Source of the DNA: Acidobacteriota bacterium
Lineage (GTDB): Bacteria; Acidobacteriota; UBA6911
Length of the DNA stretch: 64,000 nucleotides
Assembly (NCBI GenBank): GCA_963664705.1
Contig: OY761556.1
Coordinates: forward strand, 2,560,001-2,624,000
Direction: 5' to 3'
Position 1 is the stretch's first letter. Every line of letters starts with the position of its first letter. Of the stretch, positions 25,181-35,257 are shown one piece after another. A program made the position numbers and the translations under genes. The notes under the pieces were generated by a model. It saw only the letters and a program-made list of their open reading frames with translations. It had not been told where the DNA came from and made no database searches.

Positions 25181-25584
25181 TCGCCATCCGGCTGAATCTC
25201 ACGCGGACCGCCATAGCCCACCATATCCACCGGCACAGGAAAGAGCTCAAGCTGGCCGGAAGCGGAACTGCTTTTAATGGGCACTCGTGAAATCAGCGGG
25301 GAAGTAGTGGCTATGCTGGAAAGAGAGCCGGTTCGGAGGAGTAATCCGGCCCTCAACTCCTACATTCCAGTTGGATCCGCTTATTTTTGCGGATTATTAC
25401 GTCCATAAGCGTAGGCATTCCAGCTTTGCGCATCATCAATAGTGGCACCGGTATCGGCCGGGTCCACGGAAAGGAATCTTCCTTGTGGTGAAGAAAAGTA
25501 TCTCGCACCGAAGAAGTCCAAGCCTGTTTCGGCATCCCGTTCTTTGCCGGAAATTGCTGACGCAATAAACCGGAAAGGATTGTA

Positions 25585-26040
25585 CTACTTATGCTTAGCC
25601 GAGAATTCTTTGACGTTCAGTACCTTTTGAAGAATAAATTGATTTTTCCACAAATCCGACGCTAGTTTTTTATCTCCAATTGTCTTTTTCCCGTTCTTTA
25701 GTTGGTAAATTGAGTCAAATTTTCCTCGAAGTGTCACGCCAATTTTGACATTCTCACCCGATAGTAAACGCAGAGACCACAACTCATATTTCTGATATTC
25801 CGCATCTCTTTCCAGAGTAAATGCAGGTTTGGGTTCAGCCTTTTCCGGACTCAATAGCGGTATACAGTGCTTATATTTTTCATCGCATATGCTCATTCCG
25901 TGATATTCATGAAGGAGGAAGCCTTGAACCGTCACAATTCTATGTGAAAACTCATATGGATTACTTACCAATTGCACGACAGAACGTGTGTTTTCGATAA
26001 TCTGACCAGTTAGCTGGCATAACAAAATAATCCAGAGCAT
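25585..26040 (-). CDS. Putative Rhs immunity protein (short hydrophobic N-terminus)
   Basis: Low-GC 151-aa ORF 23 bp downstream of the Rhs stop, strong GGAGGAGG SD. Confidence 0.65.
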   Translation of the reverse strand: MLWIILLCQLTGQIIENTRSVVQLVSNPYEFSHRIVTVQGFLLHEYHGMSICDEKYKHCIPLLSPEKAEPKPAFTLERDAEYQKYELWSLRLLSGENVKIGVTLRGKFDSIYQLKNGKKTIGDKKLASDLWKNQFILQKVLNVKEFSAKHK

Positions 26041-26063: not shown

Positions 26064-29000
26064 CTACCTTCCCGAGCCATAAGTCTCCACGGCTCTCTTT
26101 GTATTTTGGTCCACCGACTTCATTCGCTCTCCTTCAGCATACGCCTTTGCTTTTGGTATGTTCTTGTCAACTTGAAGCCATGACGGATTCCACAGACCAT
26201 ACATCGAAAGTCTATTGAAAGCTTTGTTAACATACGATTGAGTATCAAATCCGGTATGTTCATAAGCGTATATTTGCTTGTCAGACATATATTTAGGACC
26301 ATAGCGTCTGTCGGCAATATGAGCCCCTTCATGCGCCACGATGGCTGCATTTTCAACACTCGGATCAATAGGCTTTCCAGCCATCCTTTGTGATCGCGTG
26401 CCTGTTTTGATTGCGTCAATATCGAATCTGACTGTAACTATTCCTGGTCCGCCAGTAACTCCTGCATACCCTCTTGGCACAGTCCCAAATTCGACAATAA
26501 CTCCATTAAAATCGTTTTCCTTTCCATACGTATCTAGAACTTTCTTTATGGAGTTATATTCATCGGAGCCTTCTTTCAGTTTGTTCAATGCGGTTTCCAT
26601 CTCCGCTAACTGCGTTCTGAACCATGTCTGATTTGCTTGGCATTGGCTATCGGTTATCTCGCAACCAACCGCAAAATTGAACAAACCATCAGGATCGGTA
26701 AAGGTAAAGGGAGCATTAAACGCATAGCTGTATCGATTCCATGATTGAGGATTGTTGGGATGCCCACTATTCAGCAAAGGGTCAGGACCTAGGAACCTGC
26801 CCTGGACCCCTGAGAAGTACCTAGCCCCGAAGTAATCCAACCCCGTTTCGGCGTCCCGTTCTTTGCCAGTAAATTTCTGCGGTTCCCGGCTGGTGATCTG
26901 CACGTCAGGGTTCGACAAATAGCAGTTCACTTGACTTCTCGTATTATCCGCCGAGCTTATCATTCGTCCAAAAGGCAGATAATCATTGCACTCCAGCGGG
27001 GTTCCCGTATCCGACGTGACTGCCCGGACGCTGCCCAATATATCTGATGTCAACCATGTCGCACCAGTGCTTGTCGGAGCCTGAGTGGAGTTTTCGGCTG
27101 CCAGCCGGCCCAGAGCATCATATAGGTAATATGTGTAGATCGTCGAACCGCCGTATGTCCAGGTCTTCTTGATTCGACGTCCTTCTCCATCGTAAGCGAT
27201 GGAACCGGATCCTGGACCTGAGATGCTTATGTTTCGATTTTCCGCATCGTATCCAAGCGTAAAGGACCCATACTGGGTTTGATTTCCTGAGGAATCATAG
27301 CCCCCCGGAATATTGAGGCGATTTGTCGAAGTAATGTAATTGTTGAGGCTTGCCGGTTCTCGCGAATCGGAATGCGCCAGGTTTACGGTCGTCACCGCCT
27401 GGTTGCCCCATCGATCATAGCTGAATGTCTGAGACCATGCTCCCATTTCGCTTGCAGTTGCCAATCGATCAAGCGGATCATAGGTAAATTCCTGGTAGTA
27501 GCTGTATGCCAAATTACGGGTTGTTCTTTGGTTTTGCAAATTTCCGTTGTTTTGCGTGGCATGATAATTATAGTCCAACCTCAGCCGTTCCTCTCCGCCC
27601 AGCGTCGTACCCAAACGGTAATAAGTCGTTTCTCCCGGTGTGTGGTACTCGCGTGTATCATAGAGGCCATTGCCCAATCGCATTCGTGCTATCCGTCCGT
27701 CAGGCGCATACGTTGAAAACGGAAAGTCAGCAATCACGGTCATATCCGTGTACGTCCTTGCGGAGCTGTAAACCTTACTATTTCGCCCCATGTTCTCAAC
27801 ATCATAATTCACGGTGCGTCCCGAAGGATAGGTAATGTCTTTTAATCCGCCATTAACGTACCAATGATAACCGAACGTAAACTTCCCATACCCGTTAATC
27901 GTCTGGCTGCTGCTCAAGACATTCCCAAATTCGTCATAGCTATCATATGCCATTGATGCCACATTCGAACTGATTGACTTTAGCCGGCCTACATTTGGAG
28001 AAACTGATGATCCTGCCAGATAATAACTATACGTAACATTTGGCGTGGTTGGATTATCGCTGTAGGTTTTGCTGACAATCCGATGCAACGGATCATAGGC
28101 AAATGTTGTCACTATATTTCGGGCGTCAGTCCGTGTCTGAAGGTCTCCACTGTCGAGATAGGCATAGGATGCGCTGCCGCTCTCCGGATTCGATGTCGAA
28201 CGCAAACGGCTTAAGGAACTGTAATTGAAGGTCCTGGAAGGCTGCGTTCCTTGAGTGACCTGAGTCAAGTTATCCAGGGGGTCATAAAAATAAGTCGTGC
28301 TGTAATTCAGGCCGGGGCTTGGGTCCTCCACTACCTCCAGCATTCGCCCCAGACCATCGTGCCGCTGCTTGCGTACTTTTAGCGCGGGATCGGTAACGGT
28401 TGTCCACTCAGCGTCATAGGCCTTTGTTGTCACGCCTGTGCGGGTGGTGGGATTGGTTTGCTCACAATTGGCAGGTTCGCTGCTCCCTTTGAAAATCCCA
28501 ACCTTTGATACGCGGCCAAGCAGATCGTATTGCGTGCATGTCCATTCCAATGTCGGATCATTAAGCGTTCGATAGGGAGTGCTGGTGATTACCCGGCGAC
28601 CGCCCTGGGCATACAAATCGTGTGTAGTCGTATAAATATAGTTCGGGACACCATTGACCGTCTTTTCCAATTTCCGAACCATATTTGCCCGGCCCACCTG
28701 ATCATAATTCGTAATGGTTTGTGATACCTGATCCGCATTCGTCCGCAAATCGCTTATGCCCATAACGGAGCGATCAGCGTCATTATAGATTGAAGATGTT
28801 TGTCTCAGGAGGTTCCACGTGCCGGAAACAGACTTCTTATCGGCAGTGGTCAGCTGCCGCCCTACGTTATCGTAGGTATAGAAAGTCCCCATGCCATTAT
28901 CCAGATCCTTCTTGGATGCAAGTGCTACCCCTACCGACAGAATGTTGTTGGATTGATCACGAATCATCCAGTCGTATTCCCAGGAGCGATGCACACTATT

Positions 29001-31148
29001 TGGATCGCCTTGATCCACCCGTGTTACATAAAAACCACTGTTATAGGTAATGTCGGTACGCACCTCAGGGTCATTGATATTTGTCACATCTCCGATTCTC
29101 GTCACATTGCCGTATGAATCATACGTCCGTGACAACACCTGCGCGTTGGAACCCGACAGCAGTCCAAGCCCAGGCAATCCGGGTGATTTGACGCTGTCCC
29201 ATCGTGCCTCAGCCGTAACATTTCCATTTGTATAGGCGTTTCCACCCTTTGCTGGATCATACGAATACTCGGTCGCAGCGTAGGGAATAAGCCCTTCCGC
29301 ATCCGAAGAAACCTTCCTGCGTTTAAGAGCATTCAAACGCCGCGCAGACAACTGCGCCCATATATTTGGATTGTGCGCATGCCAGTACCCATTGGCATCA
29401 TCAGGTTGTGAAAGCGTTACATAATAATCATAAAACGTTTTTCGTCTTATGATTCCCCCCGATTCGTCGGGATAATCGGTCCAGTCGTGTTCTGTTTTGG
29501 TAAGCAAATTTCCATTTTTGTCATAGGTGTAATCGACTACTGCGGTCTTCGCAGGCGTTCCCAAAGAATTTCCCACAGTCGTCGCCTCGCGATACACATA
29601 CGGATTATTAAGAATTGAATATGATCCATAAACGCTATTCTGCGCCCATTGCCGCTTTTGAACCGAACCGCTGGGTCCCTCCACCCAATTCACGAGTCCG
29701 CTGGTCCAATAGGGCGTATAATTTTTTGTGTCAAAATGACTGGTCGTTTCCCCGCCGTCAGGTGCAGTGACTTTTGTGCTCGTTAATGTATATAGAAAAG
29801 TCCACGTATCAATTGTCCCATCGTGCGTAATCTGCTTTTGCGAGACACTATTATCATTTGCTATGCAATCAGCATCCCAACTATTGAGACAGGATGCAGG
29901 CTGTTCCAGCCGGTATGAGTACCCATATTGCGAGCCTGTCGGCATGCGCATATAGTTGAGCAAGCCCCATCCATTATCGCCATCACTGTAACCGAATTTG
30001 TAGCTGTTCCAGACCGATGGCTCCTGGCCAAGAGTGACAGGTGATGCCAGTGGCAATTGAATATATTTTACTGTCCAGAACCCGCCACCATACGCCAACG
30101 TCCGATCATAGGGAGGGGGAGCCGTAGGAGCGTACGTATATCTGCGGTTCAATGATCCATACTGAATTGAATTCCAGTCAACGGCCGTCGTAATCGATCC
30201 ATTTGGTCCCGGAGCGCTTATGGTATCCCGTAGCCAAGTGTCGGTGCTGGTATTCGCATCGGTAACATTGTAGCTGATCCTGATCTCGTGTCCGCCGTCA
30301 TCCTGAATGGATGTATAGGGATCGCAACCGTCTGGCCAACTGTGGCAATAATTGCTGATCCTGATCCTGTTATTTTTCGAATCATAGGAATCTACGGTTC
30401 CGTTAACCGGAGAAACAACAACACGCCGGCCATCCGGGTAATACACATACCAGTCCTTCTCCCGCCAAGCCGTTGTCCCATCAGCGTAGATTTCAACTTT
30501 AAGGTAACTCCCATCTGTCGTGTAATACGTAAGCCAGCCGGTCACGACCTGCGGAGGAGTCTGGTAAGGGCACGTAATGTCTTTGCCTGCAGGATTAATT
30601 GGGATAAAACCATTGGTCGATGTGTACCCCCCGTAGGTCTCATAGCCTCTCAAATAGAGGATATGCATGCTGCCATCAGGCAACAACACCCTCATTCGAA
30701 CCAATCCTCTCCCTCCATACTGGCAGCCGGTGGCTTCCTGCATTTCATCTTCCAACCAGTAATTATTGGCATTGTATGTCCATCCACCGCTTAAGGTAAT
30801 TGGAGCAACCACTTTGACAGGAACATCAACGTATCTTTGGTTTAATGTATCCCACATGCGTTCTACGGCAGCATGGACATCATTAATGTGCGAATCATAT
30901 TGAAGATTCAGGTCGAATCCTATCCCTCCCCTCCCCCGTGGTATTGACGCGAGCGGGATCTGAAGATTCAATTTGCCGCTGACCGTATCGATATTGTCAA
31001 CCGGGCTGCTGAGTTGATCAGCAGTGGGCATAAATCCGCGGGGCGGCTTCGTATCGACGTTATATAAATCCTGGGCAGTTGCCAATGGCAGGAAACCAAT
31101 GATAAGCATAAGGACGAACAACGTGCTGAATCTTGATCGGCTGAACAT
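26064..31148 (-). CDS. Rhs/YD-repeat polymorphic toxin with Sec signal peptide and C-terminal HExxH domain
   Basis: YD repeats; core KFTGKERDAETGLDYFGARY..NRYSYAFNAPFTFTDPDGL; 205-aa tail with VAHEGAH; N-terminus MFSRSRFSTLFVLMLIIGFLPLATA; AGGAGG SD before 31148. Confidence 0.95.
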   Translation of the reverse strand: MFSRSRFSTLFVLMLIIGFLPLATAQDLYNVDTKPPRGFMPTADQLSSPVDNIDTVSGKLNLQIPLASIPRGRGGIGFDLNLQYDSHINDVHAAVERMWDTLNQRYVDVPVKVVAPITLSGGWTYNANNYWLEDEMQEATGCQYGGRGLVRMRVLLPDGSMHILYLRGYETYGGYTSTNGFIPINPAGKDITCPYQTPPQVVTGWLTYYTTDGSYLKVEIYADGTTAWREKDWYVYYPDGRRVVVSPVNGTVDSYDSKNNRIRISNYCHSWPDGCDPYTSIQDDGGHEIRISYNVTDANTSTDTWLRDTISAPGPNGSITTAVDWNSIQYGSLNRRYTYAPTAPPPYDRTLAYGGGFWTVKYIQLPLASPVTLGQEPSVWNSYKFGYSDGDNGWGLLNYMRMPTGSQYGYSYRLEQPASCLNSWDADCIANDNSVSQKQITHDGTIDTWTFLYTLTSTKVTAPDGGETTSHFDTKNYTPYWTSGLVNWVEGPSGSVQKRQWAQNSVYGSYSILNNPYVYREATTVGNSLGTPAKTAVVDYTYDKNGNLLTKTEHDWTDYPDESGGIIRRKTFYDYYVTLSQPDDANGYWHAHNPNIWAQLSARRLNALKRRKVSSDAEGLIPYAATEYSYDPAKGGNAYTNGNVTAEARWDSVKSPGLPGLGLLSGSNAQVLSRTYDSYGNVTRIGDVTNINDPEVRTDITYNSGFYVTRVDQGDPNSVHRSWEYDWMIRDQSNNILSVGVALASKKDLDNGMGTFYTYDNVGRQLTTADKKSVSGTWNLLRQTSSIYNDADRSVMGISDLRTNADQVSQTITNYDQVGRANMVRKLEKTVNGVPNYIYTTTHDLYAQGGRRVITSTPYRTLNDPTLEWTCTQYDLLGRVSKVGIFKGSSEPANCEQTNPTTRTGVTTKAYDAEWTTVTDPALKVRKQRHDGLGRMLEVVEDPSPGLNYSTTYFYDPLDNLTQVTQGTQPSRTFNYSSLSRLRSTSNPESGSASYAYLDSGDLQTRTDARNIVTTFAYDPLHRIVSKTYSDNPTTPNVTYSYYLAGSSVSPNVGRLKSISSNVASMAYDSYDEFGNVLSSSQTINGYGKFTFGYHWYVNGGLKDITYPSGRTVNYDVENMGRNSKVYSSARTYTDMTVIADFPFSTYAPDGRIARMRLGNGLYDTREYHTPGETTYYRLGTTLGGEERLRLDYNYHATQNNGNLQNQRTTRNLAYSYYQEFTYDPLDRLATASEMGAWSQTFSYDRWGNQAVTTVNLAHSDSREPASLNNYITSTNRLNIPGGYDSSGNQTQYGSFTLGYDAENRNISISGPGSGSIAYDGEGRRIKKTWTYGGSTIYTYYLYDALGRLAAENSTQAPTSTGATWLTSDILGSVRAVTSDTGTPLECNDYLPFGRMISSADNTRSQVNCYLSNPDVQITSREPQKFTGKERDAETGLDYFGARYFSGVQGRFLGPDPLLNSGHPNNPQSWNRYSYAFNAPFTFTDPDGLFNFAVGCEITDSQCQANQTWFRTQLAEMETALNKLKEGSDEYNSIKKVLDTYGKENDFNGVIVEFGTVPRGYAGVTGGPGIVTVRFDIDAIKTGTRSQRMAGKPIDPSVENAAIVAHEGAHIADRRYGPKYMSDKQIYAYEHTGFDTQSYVNKAFNRLSMYGLWNPSWLQVDKNIPKAKAYAEGERMKSVDQNTKRAVETYGSGR

Positions 31149-31170: not shown

Positions 31171-31941
31171 CTAGAATTGGCTTGCGTCCAAGGCAGGCAC
31201 ATTCTCAATTGCTGTCACTGTAAATGAATAAACCAGTTTCCCACCCTCGTAATGCTCAATCACGGCCGGATATGCAGATCCGTCTATGCTTCCCCACATT
31301 GAAAACCGAGTCTCTATCTTTACAGGCGGCTTAACGCTTCGGTCATAATATTGGGTCCGCTGCAGGTATCCCGTTTTTGAATCATAGTAATAGGTTTTTG
31401 TTCTAATCGTTTTGTCCTGACGGCTTCGAACAGGAATAGTCACTTCAAAAAGGTCATAGCGCGGCCCCTTGTAGTCCAGCACAAGTGCAGGATCGGGCCC
31501 AAAACCCCGACCGATTATTCGGACTGCTGCCGATTCTTGTATCGATTCCAGCATTCCTTCCGGAAAGTCCATGACAAACGTTTCCAGTAATGCCTCATCG
31601 CTTTGGCGGGAGGTTATCCCCTTCACATCTTTGCCATTGAAGGAGATCGCTGTCCCTTGTCCCTTAAAACCTTCCAGTCGGACCAGTCCTGGCAATTGGT
31701 AGATCACCCGAGTCGCCGTCGCCTTGCCATCAGCATCTGTAAACTCGCCGATATAGATCGTCGTTTCCTTGCCGGAAGTTTTCACCCGGTCTCCCAGCGC
31801 TCCCATCTGCAATGCAAATACACTGGGTATATTGGAATAATACTTCCCCGTATTCGTATTATTTTGTTCCGAATTCACAAAAGGGCAAAACATGGTCGTG
31901 ATGAAAAGAGCAGCTAGCCAGAATCGATTCTTCATCTCCAT
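31171..31941 (-). CDS. Secreted protein, LolA-like/lipoprotein-sorting-type fold predicted
   Basis: Signal peptide; C-terminal YYYDSKTGYLQR..FSMWGSIDGSAYP motif. Confidence 0.6.
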   Translation of the reverse strand: MEMKNRFWLAALFITTMFCPFVNSEQNNTNTGKYYSNIPSVFALQMGALGDRVKTSGKETTIYIGEFTDADGKATATRVIYQLPGLVRLEGFKGQGTAISFNGKDVKGITSRQSDEALLETFVMDFPEGMLESIQESAAVRIIGRGFGPDPALVLDYKGPRYDLFEVTIPVRSRQDKTIRTKTYYYDSKTGYLQRTQYYDRSVKPPVKIETRFSMWGSIDGSAYPAVIEHYEGGKLVYSFTVTAIENVPALDASQF

Positions 31942-31975
31942 TACCTCACCTCTGATATGTATTGATTGTTTGTGA

Positions 31976-32758
31976 TTACGGAACAAACAGCGAATTCGAT
32001 AAGCCCACGTTGTATTCGACCGATGTGAAGTTCATTTCCTCGATTTTGATCAATCCCTGATACACCTCAATCCTGAACGGCATCATCACGCCATTAACGC
32101 TCCGGTAATCAGAAAACAAATAGCTGGCAATAAGCGGATACTTCTGGTCGCCAAAAAGCATTGTGTAAAATCCGCCGGTGTCAAATTCGAGACGGGTGAT
32201 CAGCGATGTTGAATTATCGATATGATAACGCGTGATCTGTCCGGCCTCGTTGGTCGACTCGATGACGCGACTTAGCGAGCTTTCAGTGGCTGAATCGTGC
32301 GGCGCGGGACCCAGATCGCGAAGCGCATATTTTTCTGCATTGGCGAACAGGCTTGAAGAAGATCGGGTCGTTTGGCTTTCAATGAGGAATTTCACACTTC
32401 CGACGGCAGGAGCCGAAAAAGGCCCGGATGTTTGCCAATTCCTCTTTCCGTCAGATCCGATTCGGACAACAGTTTCATTTGCCTCCCTGCCGGTCACGAC
32501 ACGCTGGACCATTTTGTTGTCTTTGACGGTCAGCGTGAAATCCGCAGGCCCGCCCACCATGCCGGTGATTGTGATTTTGCCGCTGCCTACCCAGTCGGCA
32601 ATTGTCATTTTTCCCAATCCCTGGCCATGGGCCTGAGCAGCCTGATCAACTAATTTGATTGTCGAGCCTTGTTGGGCGTATACCTCACAAACGGCGAGAG
32701 TGCATAGCAACCCTACAGCCATTAGATTCAGCACCGAGCCTTTTATCTTCCCCACCAT
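31976..32758 (-). CDS. Secreted protein, LolA-like fold predicted (apparent paralog of neighbour)
   Basis: Signal peptide (VYA-Q); AAQAHG.., YHIDNSTSLITR..FSDYRSVNGVMMPFRIE motif. Confidence 0.65.
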   Translation of the reverse strand: MVGKIKGSVLNLMAVGLLCTLAVCEVYAQQGSTIKLVDQAAQAHGQGLGKMTIADWVGSGKITITGMVGGPADFTLTVKDNKMVQRVVTGREANETVVRIGSDGKRNWQTSGPFSAPAVGSVKFLIESQTTRSSSSLFANAEKYALRDLGPAPHDSATESSLSRVIESTNEAGQITRYHIDNSTSLITRLEFDTGGFYTMLFGDQKYPLIASYLFSDYRSVNGVMMPFRIEVYQGLIKIEEMNFTSVEYNVGLSNSLFVP

Positions 32759-32774: not shown

Positions 32775-34049
32775 TTAGCGGCAAGCGTAGACAACTTCGT
32801 TGGTATAAAAATACGCCCAGGCGGAATCATCAATAGAATCAAGTTGATTTCTAACCCTGACAATGACCCACGTTCCGGGATATGTACTGCAGTCCGCATA
32901 GCTCGGGTATTGCCCCCAAGCATTTAGCGCTAATGGATATTCATAGCCGCCCCCCGGGGGGGTTGGATTGTTTATGAGGGCATAAACAGCTTGAGATTGT
33001 TCATTGCCCATTGTGAAGGTTTGCCAAGCCGGCAATTGCAACGGATTGGGCGAGTCCGTCGCACTTGTGGGTTTTGGCGGCCTTTCCAGAAAAGTCGGCT
33101 GCGGAGACAAATAAACCCAATCGTCTCGCATTGTGTTTTTAATTGCGATAAACACGCTCGTCCCAGGAGTATCCGACTGGACTAACTGCCGGAACATCTG
33201 TCCGCCCGCATTCATTTGACCCAGAGTCGTCTGATAGGAAGACGACGATCCTGCCAGAGGATAAAATGTGGCCCATACATCTATGGACATGTTGGCGCCG
33301 TTGCCTACGGTCACCGTAAATGAATCATTGCCGGCAAATCCGCTATTCGGACTGAAAGTCATGGACGTGGGTTGCGGGTAGCTGAACTGGTATACAAACA
33401 GCGATTGACCCGCAATTATAGGAAAACCATACCGGTCTCCGCCACGATTGCCGCCCACAGTGTATCCGACAGTCCCATTTCCATTCCCTGCACCAGGAGG
33501 AGTTATCGTAATCCACGAATTCCCGCCATTGGATGCCGTCCAACTGCATCCAGCCGTAGCATAAACATTGAAGGTTCCGCTCCCACCGCCGACTCCAATG
33601 TATGCGTATGTTGGCGATATGCTGAAGGAACAGCCGGAGTCCTGACTGACTGTAAATGTCTGCCCGCCAATTGTAATCGTCCCATTTCTCGCCGGGCCGG
33701 TATTTTGGGTAACCGCATAAACTACCGTACCATTGCCGGAGCCATTTGAACCGGAGGTGACCGTGAGCCATGAAGTATTGTTACTCACTGCAGTCCAGCC
33801 ACAACCCGCAGGCGCCGTGACAGTGACGCTACTACTTCCGCTGCCCGAGCCGATATTTGCAGCTGTCGGACTGATCTGATAGCTGCAAGTAACCTGTTGC
33901 GTTTCCAACGCAATCACCTGCTGGCCCATATAGACGTAGTCCTTCATCGTTTGTGTTTGGCTCCGGGCATGAGCGGACAGAAGCAAAATACTTATGCATG
34001 AGATTATTCCAACATGCAGCTTGATCGCCCTACAATGCCGTCTCTGCAT
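32775..34049 (-). CDS. Secreted BACON-domain protein
   Basis: Two repeats CSYQISP..GCGWTAVSNNTSWLTVT..GNGTVVY..RNGTITIGGQTFTVSQ; signal peptide. Confidence 0.85.
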   Translation of the reverse strand: MQRRHCRAIKLHVGIISCISILLLSAHARSQTQTMKDYVYMGQQVIALETQQVTCSYQISPTAANIGSGSGSSSVTVTAPAGCGWTAVSNNTSWLTVTSGSNGSGNGTVVYAVTQNTGPARNGTITIGGQTFTVSQDSGCSFSISPTYAYIGVGGGSGTFNVYATAGCSWTASNGGNSWITITPPGAGNGNGTVGYTVGGNRGGDRYGFPIIAGQSLFVYQFSYPQPTSMTFSPNSGFAGNDSFTVTVGNGANMSIDVWATFYPLAGSSSSYQTTLGQMNAGGQMFRQLVQSDTPGTSVFIAIKNTMRDDWVYLSPQPTFLERPPKPTSATDSPNPLQLPAWQTFTMGNEQSQAVYALINNPTPPGGGYEYPLALNAWGQYPSYADCSTYPGTWVIVRVRNQLDSIDDSAWAYFYTNEVVYACR

Positions 34050-34263: not shown

Positions 34264-34872
34264 CTATACGTTGATATCCGGCTTGATCCCCGATGCCTTG
34301 TATTTTTCCAAATGAGAGCGCTTTCGCAATCCAAGCTTCCTCAATATCTGATGAACGTGGGTTTTCACCGTACTTATACTGATATTGAGGTTCTGTGCAA
34401 TTTCTTTGTTTGCTTGATTTTCCGAGATCAGGCAAGCGATCTGTCGTTCTCTGTTCGTGAGCAATGCATCTTCAGATTCCGCTCCTTTCTTCCCTTCCTC
34501 TTCAGAGCAGATTCCGGCCATCGCGGTTTGTATTTGAGTCGAATTCGATTGGGAAAATTCGGCCGAAACGCTACGCGCAATTGGCGCATTGCGCGAATTG
34601 CGCCAATTGCGCGTAGAACCTTCGGAGATATATCGCTTCACAGCAGGAAGATAAACCTGGTACTTTTTGCCAGTCCGGATCGCCAGAGCAAAGCGCTTTT
34701 TTATCCATAGCTGGAGCGTTCTGCGGCGAATTCCGAGAATATCGGCAGCTAAGGCGGTTGAAGCAAATAGAAGTTTCCTCTGATCCGGTTCAAGAGACAG
34801 ATAAAGATTCTGCAATTCCTGCGTATTTTTCGGATGTAATTCTCTGTTGAATGGAATGATGCGGGCTGTCAC
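34264..34872 (-). CDS. Transcriptional regulator: Xis/MerR-like HTH fused to C-terminal LuxR HTH
   Basis: STALAADILGIRRRTLQLWIK plus LTNRERQIACLI..NKEIAQNLNISISTVKTHVHQILRKLG; GTG start after GGAGG. Confidence 0.8.
   Translation of the reverse strand: MTARIIPFNRELHPKNTQELQNLYLSLEPDQRKLLFASTALAADILGIRRRTLQLWIKKRFALAIRTGKKYQVYLPAVKRYISEGSTRNWRNSRNAPIARSVSAEFSQSNSTQIQTAMAGICSEEEGKKGAESEDALLTNRERQIACLISENQANKEIAQNLNISISTVKTHVHQILRKLGLRKRSHLEKYKASGIKPDINV
34571..34616. repeat. 18-bp perfect inverted repeat built from 9-bp GCGCAATT-like units
   Basis: CTACGCGCAATTGGCGCA-N10-TGCGCCAATTGCGCGTAG. Confidence 0.9.
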
Positions 34873-35257
34873 GATGTAAACCTCCATGCAGAATGATCCT
34901 GCCACAGCGGTTTTTTGAGTACTGAGGGATTCTTTTACCAAGAACGCAAAATGGAGGAATTCGCCTACCAGAAAATAGACAAATATTCATTTTTCTCAAT
35001 TTCCAGTTGGCTCACGAATTTGCGCAGCCGTTTCGGAGGTTCCGATTTGATGGAGGTCTTTGTCCAGCAGCTTGCAGGAAAATTTATAGAAATGCAGCTG
35101 CACCCGTGAGCCAGAAGATGTATTGCCAGTTGTATGAAATCAGGCAAGGGGCGGCGGGCGCATGCCACGAGGTGGCAAAATAGACGCGGGTTTCCGGCAG
35201 GCATTGCCGTTCAGATCGACAAGTAATCTGCCTTCAGAAGCCGGCACCGATCCCTGC

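Follow-up and report, generated by a model that had tools for sequence, protein, structure and literature searches.

The window, by which we mean the whole stretch of 64,000 nt that was analysed, carries on its minus strand a gene (32775..34049) whose product of 424 aa, hereafter the partner, consists of a signal-like peptide, a short hairpin motif, two BACON repeats and two novel repeats of about 100 aa. The ORF begins at the ATG at 34049, and its first segment (33960..34049, minus strand) reads as a likely Sec signal peptide, with a basic start, a hydrophobic stretch and a small-residue site. Residues 36–49 (33903..33944, minus strand) translate as KDYVYMGQQVIALE; this motif starts some 5–7 residues past the signal-like stretch, as judged by eye from the sequence. 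The two BACON-type repeats (33384..33887, minus strand) are 50% identical to each other and are reported by Pfam as one stretch, with a match above the cut-off (PF13004, E = 8e-8). An earlier note on this DNA had described this same order of signal peptide, hairpin peptide and two BACON repeats, which is confirmed. The remainder (32778..33383, minus strand), which the note had listed as an unknown domain of about 200 aa, does lack a name, but is actually made of two repeats of about 100 aa, 32% identical (self-match, E = 1.5e-5) and with only a partial Big_9 match in Pfam. The same unnamed repeat is found in the partner of another locus (L191:10314-11939, E = 1e-35), which has its hairpin at the opposite end. 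Directly upstream of the partner gene lies a regulator that combines an excisionase-like HTH with a LuxR-type HTH (window 34264-34941).

Three regular expressions of the motif were run against the six frames of the genome. Two of them matched once, in the partner ORF, and the loosest matched in addition three Rhs genes and two unrelated ORFs; a profile search of the same genome likewise returned one motif only. Comparison with a full-length homolog (P0037) revealed that 13 of the 14 motif residues are kept, versus 11 of 30 in the signal region. Among the 120 matches listed in a homolog search with the whole partner, only the query and P0037 matched the motif expression, because proteins with BACON repeats swamp the results of such a search. 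The peptide is therefore real and not a chance match.

The Rhs cassette of the window

Downstream of the partner gene and on the same strand follow two accessory genes for secreted proteins, then an Rhs gene, a gene of 151 aa and an orphan core of 67 aa. The first accessory protein (31976..32758, minus strand) resembles “outer membrane lipoprotein-sorting” (LolA-like) clusters, with an Atlas feature score of 0.97 that is a lead only; it had no match in Pfam or NCBIfam and no homolog among the other partner-Rhs loci. The second (31171..31986, minus strand), the other LolA-like gene of the earlier note, has homologs in nine other partner-Rhs loci, and its true start is probably slightly downstream of the listed bound.

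The Rhs/YD protein itself (26064..31148, minus strand; PF05593, E = 9e-12, with PDB matches) has a signal-like N-terminus and a PxxxxDPxG self-cleavage motif (PFTFTDPDGL, including the DPDGL motif) ahead of a variable C-terminal tip. Pfam reported no PAAR or VgrG domain in it, and neither Pfam nor NCBIfam returned a match to NHL or FN domains; the TIGR03696 model has four matches in the genome. The tip (26067..26681, minus strand) had no NCBIfam match and contains an HExxH motif (HEGAH), which together with Atlas leads to SprT-like and Peptidase_M91 clusters (0.90–0.91) makes a metallopeptidase-like toxin domain likely. By its position directly after the Rhs gene, the 151-aa gene (25585..26040, minus strand) is a putative immunity gene, with a paralog elsewhere in the genome (E = 2e-19). 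The orphan Rhs core fragment (25384..25584, minus strand, 67 aa) was detected by phmmer (E = 2e-16).

The cassette is flanked by phage head and tail genes on one side and phage-like early genes on the other, between the packaging and early genes of a lambda-like prophage (window 1-37700), and its GC content is 48.6%, versus 57.1% in the late (head and tail) genes. The partner and its Rhs are thus likely to be prophage cargo. Two viral contigs (L210 and L211) likewise carry partners and an Rhs of the same type, lacking the hairpin discussed below. Elsewhere in the genome, two near-duplicate Rhs genes with different tips (G000:C1:2549860-2554704 and 3533537-3538321) each have the hairpin in cis and each follow a similar small secreted gene. 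The former lies about 5 kb to the left of the window, beside phage lysis-like genes; the latter is flanked by a Mg-chelatase-like gene, which we take to be of the comM type, and the same gene adjoins the cassette at four other loci (L194, L197, L198 and L200), so that this neighbourhood is possibly an insertion hotspot.

A motif family linked to Rhs genes

A degenerate DNA pattern of the motif matched in 13 of 401 genomes of the phylum, and its reversed control in none. All 16 non-self matches fell in ORFs of 65–474 aa, with a hydrophobic segment before the motif and varied domains after it. A scan of GTDB genomes yielded at least 120 motif loci, within an estimated total of about 310 stretches; by record title, 117 of the 120 loci listed were from Acidobacteriota. 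The three others were a chance match, a bin of Anaerolineae and a bin of Actinomycetota, the last with the motif on a contig that bears the name of an Acidobacteria scaffold. A metagenome scan gave two loci only. The family is almost only found in Acidobacteriota. Seven viral pattern matches, with scores under the PSSM threshold, were dropped, as was L127, a chance match within an unrelated-looking ORF. Three unpublished genomes (G201, G046 and G083) are counted in the genome-search tallies only.

The family consensus is K[ED]Y[IV]YxGx(R/K)xxAxE. The proteins that carry it are encoded by genes of their own, are mostly secreted, and differ widely in their passenger domains. When 67 selected rows were aligned, no change was seen at two tyrosines and at the alanine, and the flanks had no consensus. 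The motif, which P0037 also retains, is conserved among homologs, as the earlier note had proposed to check. No NCBIfam or Pfam family covers it. A hydrophobic segment precedes the motif by 4–53 residues in 94 of 101 partner ORFs examined. Among 35 partners picked for diversity, Pfam recognized FG-GAP, BACON, FN3, cohesin, PA14, LamG, PKD, F5/8, TIG, CARDB, LTD and Ig domains, and 16 of the 35 had no Pfam match at all. The position of the hairpin at the mature N-terminus, noted earlier, holds for the window partner and does not extend to the whole family: the hairpin is C-terminal in L191 and internal in L078 and L102.

To quantify the link with Rhs genes, 80 loci with flanks were inspected, of which four, with the motif inside a long or Rhs-type ORF, were set aside. 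A same-strand Rhs gene was present downstream of the partner in 60 of the 76 loci counted, a proportion that rose to 57 of 62 where at least 1 kb of downstream DNA was available and to 50 of 52 where there was 3 kb or more. The loci are related to one another, most of them coming from Pyrinomonadaceae, and these counts are not independent. The linkage that the earlier note had set as a test was therefore observed. The gap between the two genes reached at most 3.4 kb and was below 120 bp in 37 of the 60 cases, many partners abutting the Rhs with no gene between. The two misses among the 52 were L052, with no Rhs within 3.8 kb downstream, and L095, where an Rhs lies upstream on the opposite strand. 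A supposed case of a partner downstream of its Rhs (L210) was rejected: that partner precedes a further Rhs start.

Passengers and toxin tips vary independently of each other. By tip, the 39 partner-Rhs pairs compared formed 36 clusters, and by passenger 11; none of the 64 pairs with similar passengers shared a homologous tip, in agreement with the earlier suggestion that the modules are swappable independently of the toxin, and 11 of 43 pairs with similar shells had unrelated passengers.

The hairpin missing from partnered Rhs

The motif matches a cis hairpin of ordinary Rhs proteins, located immediately ahead of the DHLGS core. Inside Rhs ORFs (L028, L043, L089, L111 and L116) it forms the latter of a pair of hairpins, placed after the E-Y hairpin and before YHxDHLG. 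The window Rhs departs from the canonical single-chain shell, in which the GxR strand is separated from the DHLGS core by two hairpins: it has the first hairpin, a short linker and then the core, hence one hairpin only and a spacing of 44. The junction, ENSTQAPTSTGATWLTSD (27042..27095, minus strand), occupies the position where ordinary Rhs have the hairpin and is the presumed acceptor site. The Rhs stretch TYYLYDALGRLAAEN, with which the earlier note had compared the motif, turned out to be the hairpin that immediately precedes the place where the motif belongs; the true counterpart is the one that is missing.

The same absence was found in 41 of the 42 long Rhs with a readable junction at loci with the motif in trans, with an R-to-D spacing of 39–48. 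At the exception, L054, the neighbouring Rhs that keeps its hairpin is on the opposite strand, and the DNA downstream of the partner is cut by the contig end. Sampling was also performed in the reverse direction, by similarity to the Rhs core alone, which gave 16 loci with a hairpin-less Rhs. Nine of these had the motif in trans (L149, L191, L194, L196, L197, L198, L200, L210 and L211), including variants that the DNA pattern would miss and one C-terminal motif. Three without a partner (L148, L195 and L199) are at contig ends. Four more, with truncated or orphan pieces of Rhs (L190, L192, L193 and L209), had no motif in the region, and a profile search found no motif genome-wide in G014, G016 and G009; both observations count against completion in trans.

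Rhs that keep the hairpin behaved differently. No trans motif was found in 40 regions with long Rhs sampled with TIGR03696, drawn from the best 150 of 556 matches and having little downstream DNA, several being short upstream as well; the readable Rhs among them kept both hairpins or had domains inserted there. Hairpin-bearing loci of the A1 sample also gave none. Over 121 genomes of the class, the motif (E below 0.001) was present in nine, an inspected hairpin-less Rhs in 12, and both in seven. In one of the two genomes with the motif only, an Rhs start is at the edge of the fetched DNA, and in the other the partner is 180 bp from a contig end. The association gives a Fisher p of 4e-7, which is overstated because the genomes are kin. 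The two other Rhs of the window's own genome retain the hairpin, as do the solved chains 9pt5 and 8h8a, with both hairpins kept in 9pt5, and nine of the ten plasmid Rhs of other phyla that were readable, among 12 fetched from 59 records. A cyanobacterial Rhs from the Rippkaea orientalis plasmid pP880103 (L246) is likewise short before the core, which implies that shells may tolerate shortening.

Between the last strand and the core aspartate there is a link of 16–21 residues in 67 hairpin-less sequences, versus 12–15 in 13 cis sequences (the hairpin-less lengths being E-to-D counts plus one). A longer link is expected if it spans a gap, and would favour a gap over direct closure of the sheet, although this is only suggestive.

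Rhs with insertions at the same place give a hint of the origin of the partners. In two related Rhs (L174 and L176) the hairpin is followed by an insert of about 105 aa and then by the core. The L174 insert is homologous to the passengers of 12 partners (best E = 4e-18), so that the partner resembles a shell loop that was excised or recaptured. Other inserts are located past the hairpin (L166, L178 and L180), ahead of it (L171) or ahead of the first hairpin (L028 and L179), and those of L171, L178 and L180 matched no partner passenger. When 65 cores were placed in a tree by a quick method on 119 columns, five label changes were needed, of which strongly supported branches force only one, so that the tree leaves room for one or several origins and for either fission or re-fusion. 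Large domain insertions around the pre-core hairpin loops are frequent in Acidobacteriota Rhs (L165, L166, L171, L178, L179, L180 and L028). An unnamed domain of about 100 aa with repeated H-I-x-x-L-R-x-A-V elements and no Pfam match is present in the L174 Rhs (residues ~1460–1580) and in the partners of L021, L034, L042, L057, L069, L071 and L149.

A shell probably completed in trans

In Rhs shells, according to the accessible part of bioRxiv 2024.02.26.582050, hairpins pack one after another into a continuous sheet. One hairpin less therefore means a shorter sheet or a gap. On genomic grounds, the case for completion of the Rhs shell in trans is strong, and binding of the partner to the Rhs is predicted. 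We consider it probable that the peptide is the very hairpin that the neighbouring Rhs lacks, and that it inserts into the gap, completing the capsule and tethering the partner domains outside. The earlier note had proposed that the peptide clips onto the Rhs by strand addition; the genetic linkage to Rhs genes is borne out, and edge addition is recast as the filling of a specific deletion in the cognate Rhs. Both proteins would be exported to the periplasm by Sec, after which the partner hairpin would enter the two-strand gap of the shell. Passengers would then project outward at the very loops where inserts are seen in cis, and could serve in binding to the cell surface or to the target. It is a somewhat better than even guess that these loci encode a split Rhs system, whose capsule is finished by a 14-residue tag on a secreted protein, the tagged proteins acting as plug-in targeting or anchoring heads and possibly as a latch for toxin release. 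Three partners (L062, L084 and L200) are almost free of passenger and fit a targeting role poorly.

Insertion at the same site might serve chiefly another purpose, the hairpin being a folding aid or a plug that can be removed, by which the capsule is sealed or the release of toxin is gated, with passengers secondary. Several partners have merely 17–105 residues past the motif, and the hairpin site adjoins the core that, according to the accessible part of PMC8765631, seals one capsule end as the C-terminal conserved region. The exit of toxins from Rhs capsules is moreover described as unknown, with a side opening proposed for RhsP, in the part of bioRxiv 2024.02.26.582050 consulted. As the main function this seems unlikely to us, given that most partners have folded binding-type domains and that unsplit Rhs have such domains inserted in cis at these same loops; a plug is nevertheless compatible with completion in trans, the two not being exclusive.

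Less probable still, the Rhs would close its sheet by itself and the peptide would bind elsewhere, by addition to a free edge strand or to an accessory or export protein. YD hairpins do resemble each other, a secreted accessory gene is present in the window locus and nine others, and L246 suggests that shortening is tolerable, but such binding leaves unexplained the loss of exactly this hairpin, the longer linker and the close apposition of many partners to the Rhs. It is very improbable that the motif survives from a gene fission and no longer has any part in binding: the cis forms do show that fission or fusion happened, but the motif is conserved across classes between flanks without consensus, and is retained at N-terminal, internal and C-terminal positions in unrelated proteins.

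Rhs/YD shells have been described so far as continuous single-chain or end-to-end spirals. If completion in trans is true, the YD fold would gain a new assembly principle, in which another protein supplies an internal part of the shell. Targeting and payload would be encoded by separate genes, in a phylum that abounds in soil and whose competition mechanisms are little studied, and there would be a defined handle on how Rhs capsules are addressed and opened, the 14-mer being short enough for cheap testing by deletion or swap. The arrangement is undescribed in the full-text literature searched, including the accessible parts of PMC13018210, PMC3482391, PMC8765631 and bioRxiv 2024.02.26.582050 and 2024.12.19.629468; this applies to main texts, and neighbours of this kind may still be listed in the tables of PMC3482391 or PMC13018210.

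Bacterial teneurin-like proteins, also present in Acidobacteriota, are YD shells, often exported by Sec, whose adhesion domains vary and whose tips are polymorphic, as far as the accessible part of PMC13018210 describes them. They differ in that their adhesion domains are N-terminal and in cis, with FN-plug and NHL domains (PMC13018210, same part), and in that chain 9pt5, inspected here, keeps both hairpins. With the Rhs/YD polymorphic toxins (RhsA, RhsP, Tse5, TcC/YenC2) the window Rhs shares YD repeats, core, DPxG motif, variable tip, downstream small gene and orphan core; unlike them, it lacks one pre-core hairpin, encoded by another gene, and has a signal-like N-terminus. Chaperone-usher pili use donor-strand complementation, in which another secreted protein supplies a short segment that makes up for the missing part of a beta fold. 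The Rhs acceptor similarly lacks, at the sequence level, an element that the partner encodes. That element would, however, consist of two strands forming a hairpin within a YD spiral, where pili have a single strand within an Ig fold; no polymer is involved, the sequences are unrelated, and the likeness is an analogy only. The B-C shell of Tc toxins is built from two chains, a YD capsule made of more than one polypeptide. TcB and TcC, however, join end to end as large halves, whereas here a 14-residue piece would insert inside the sheet.
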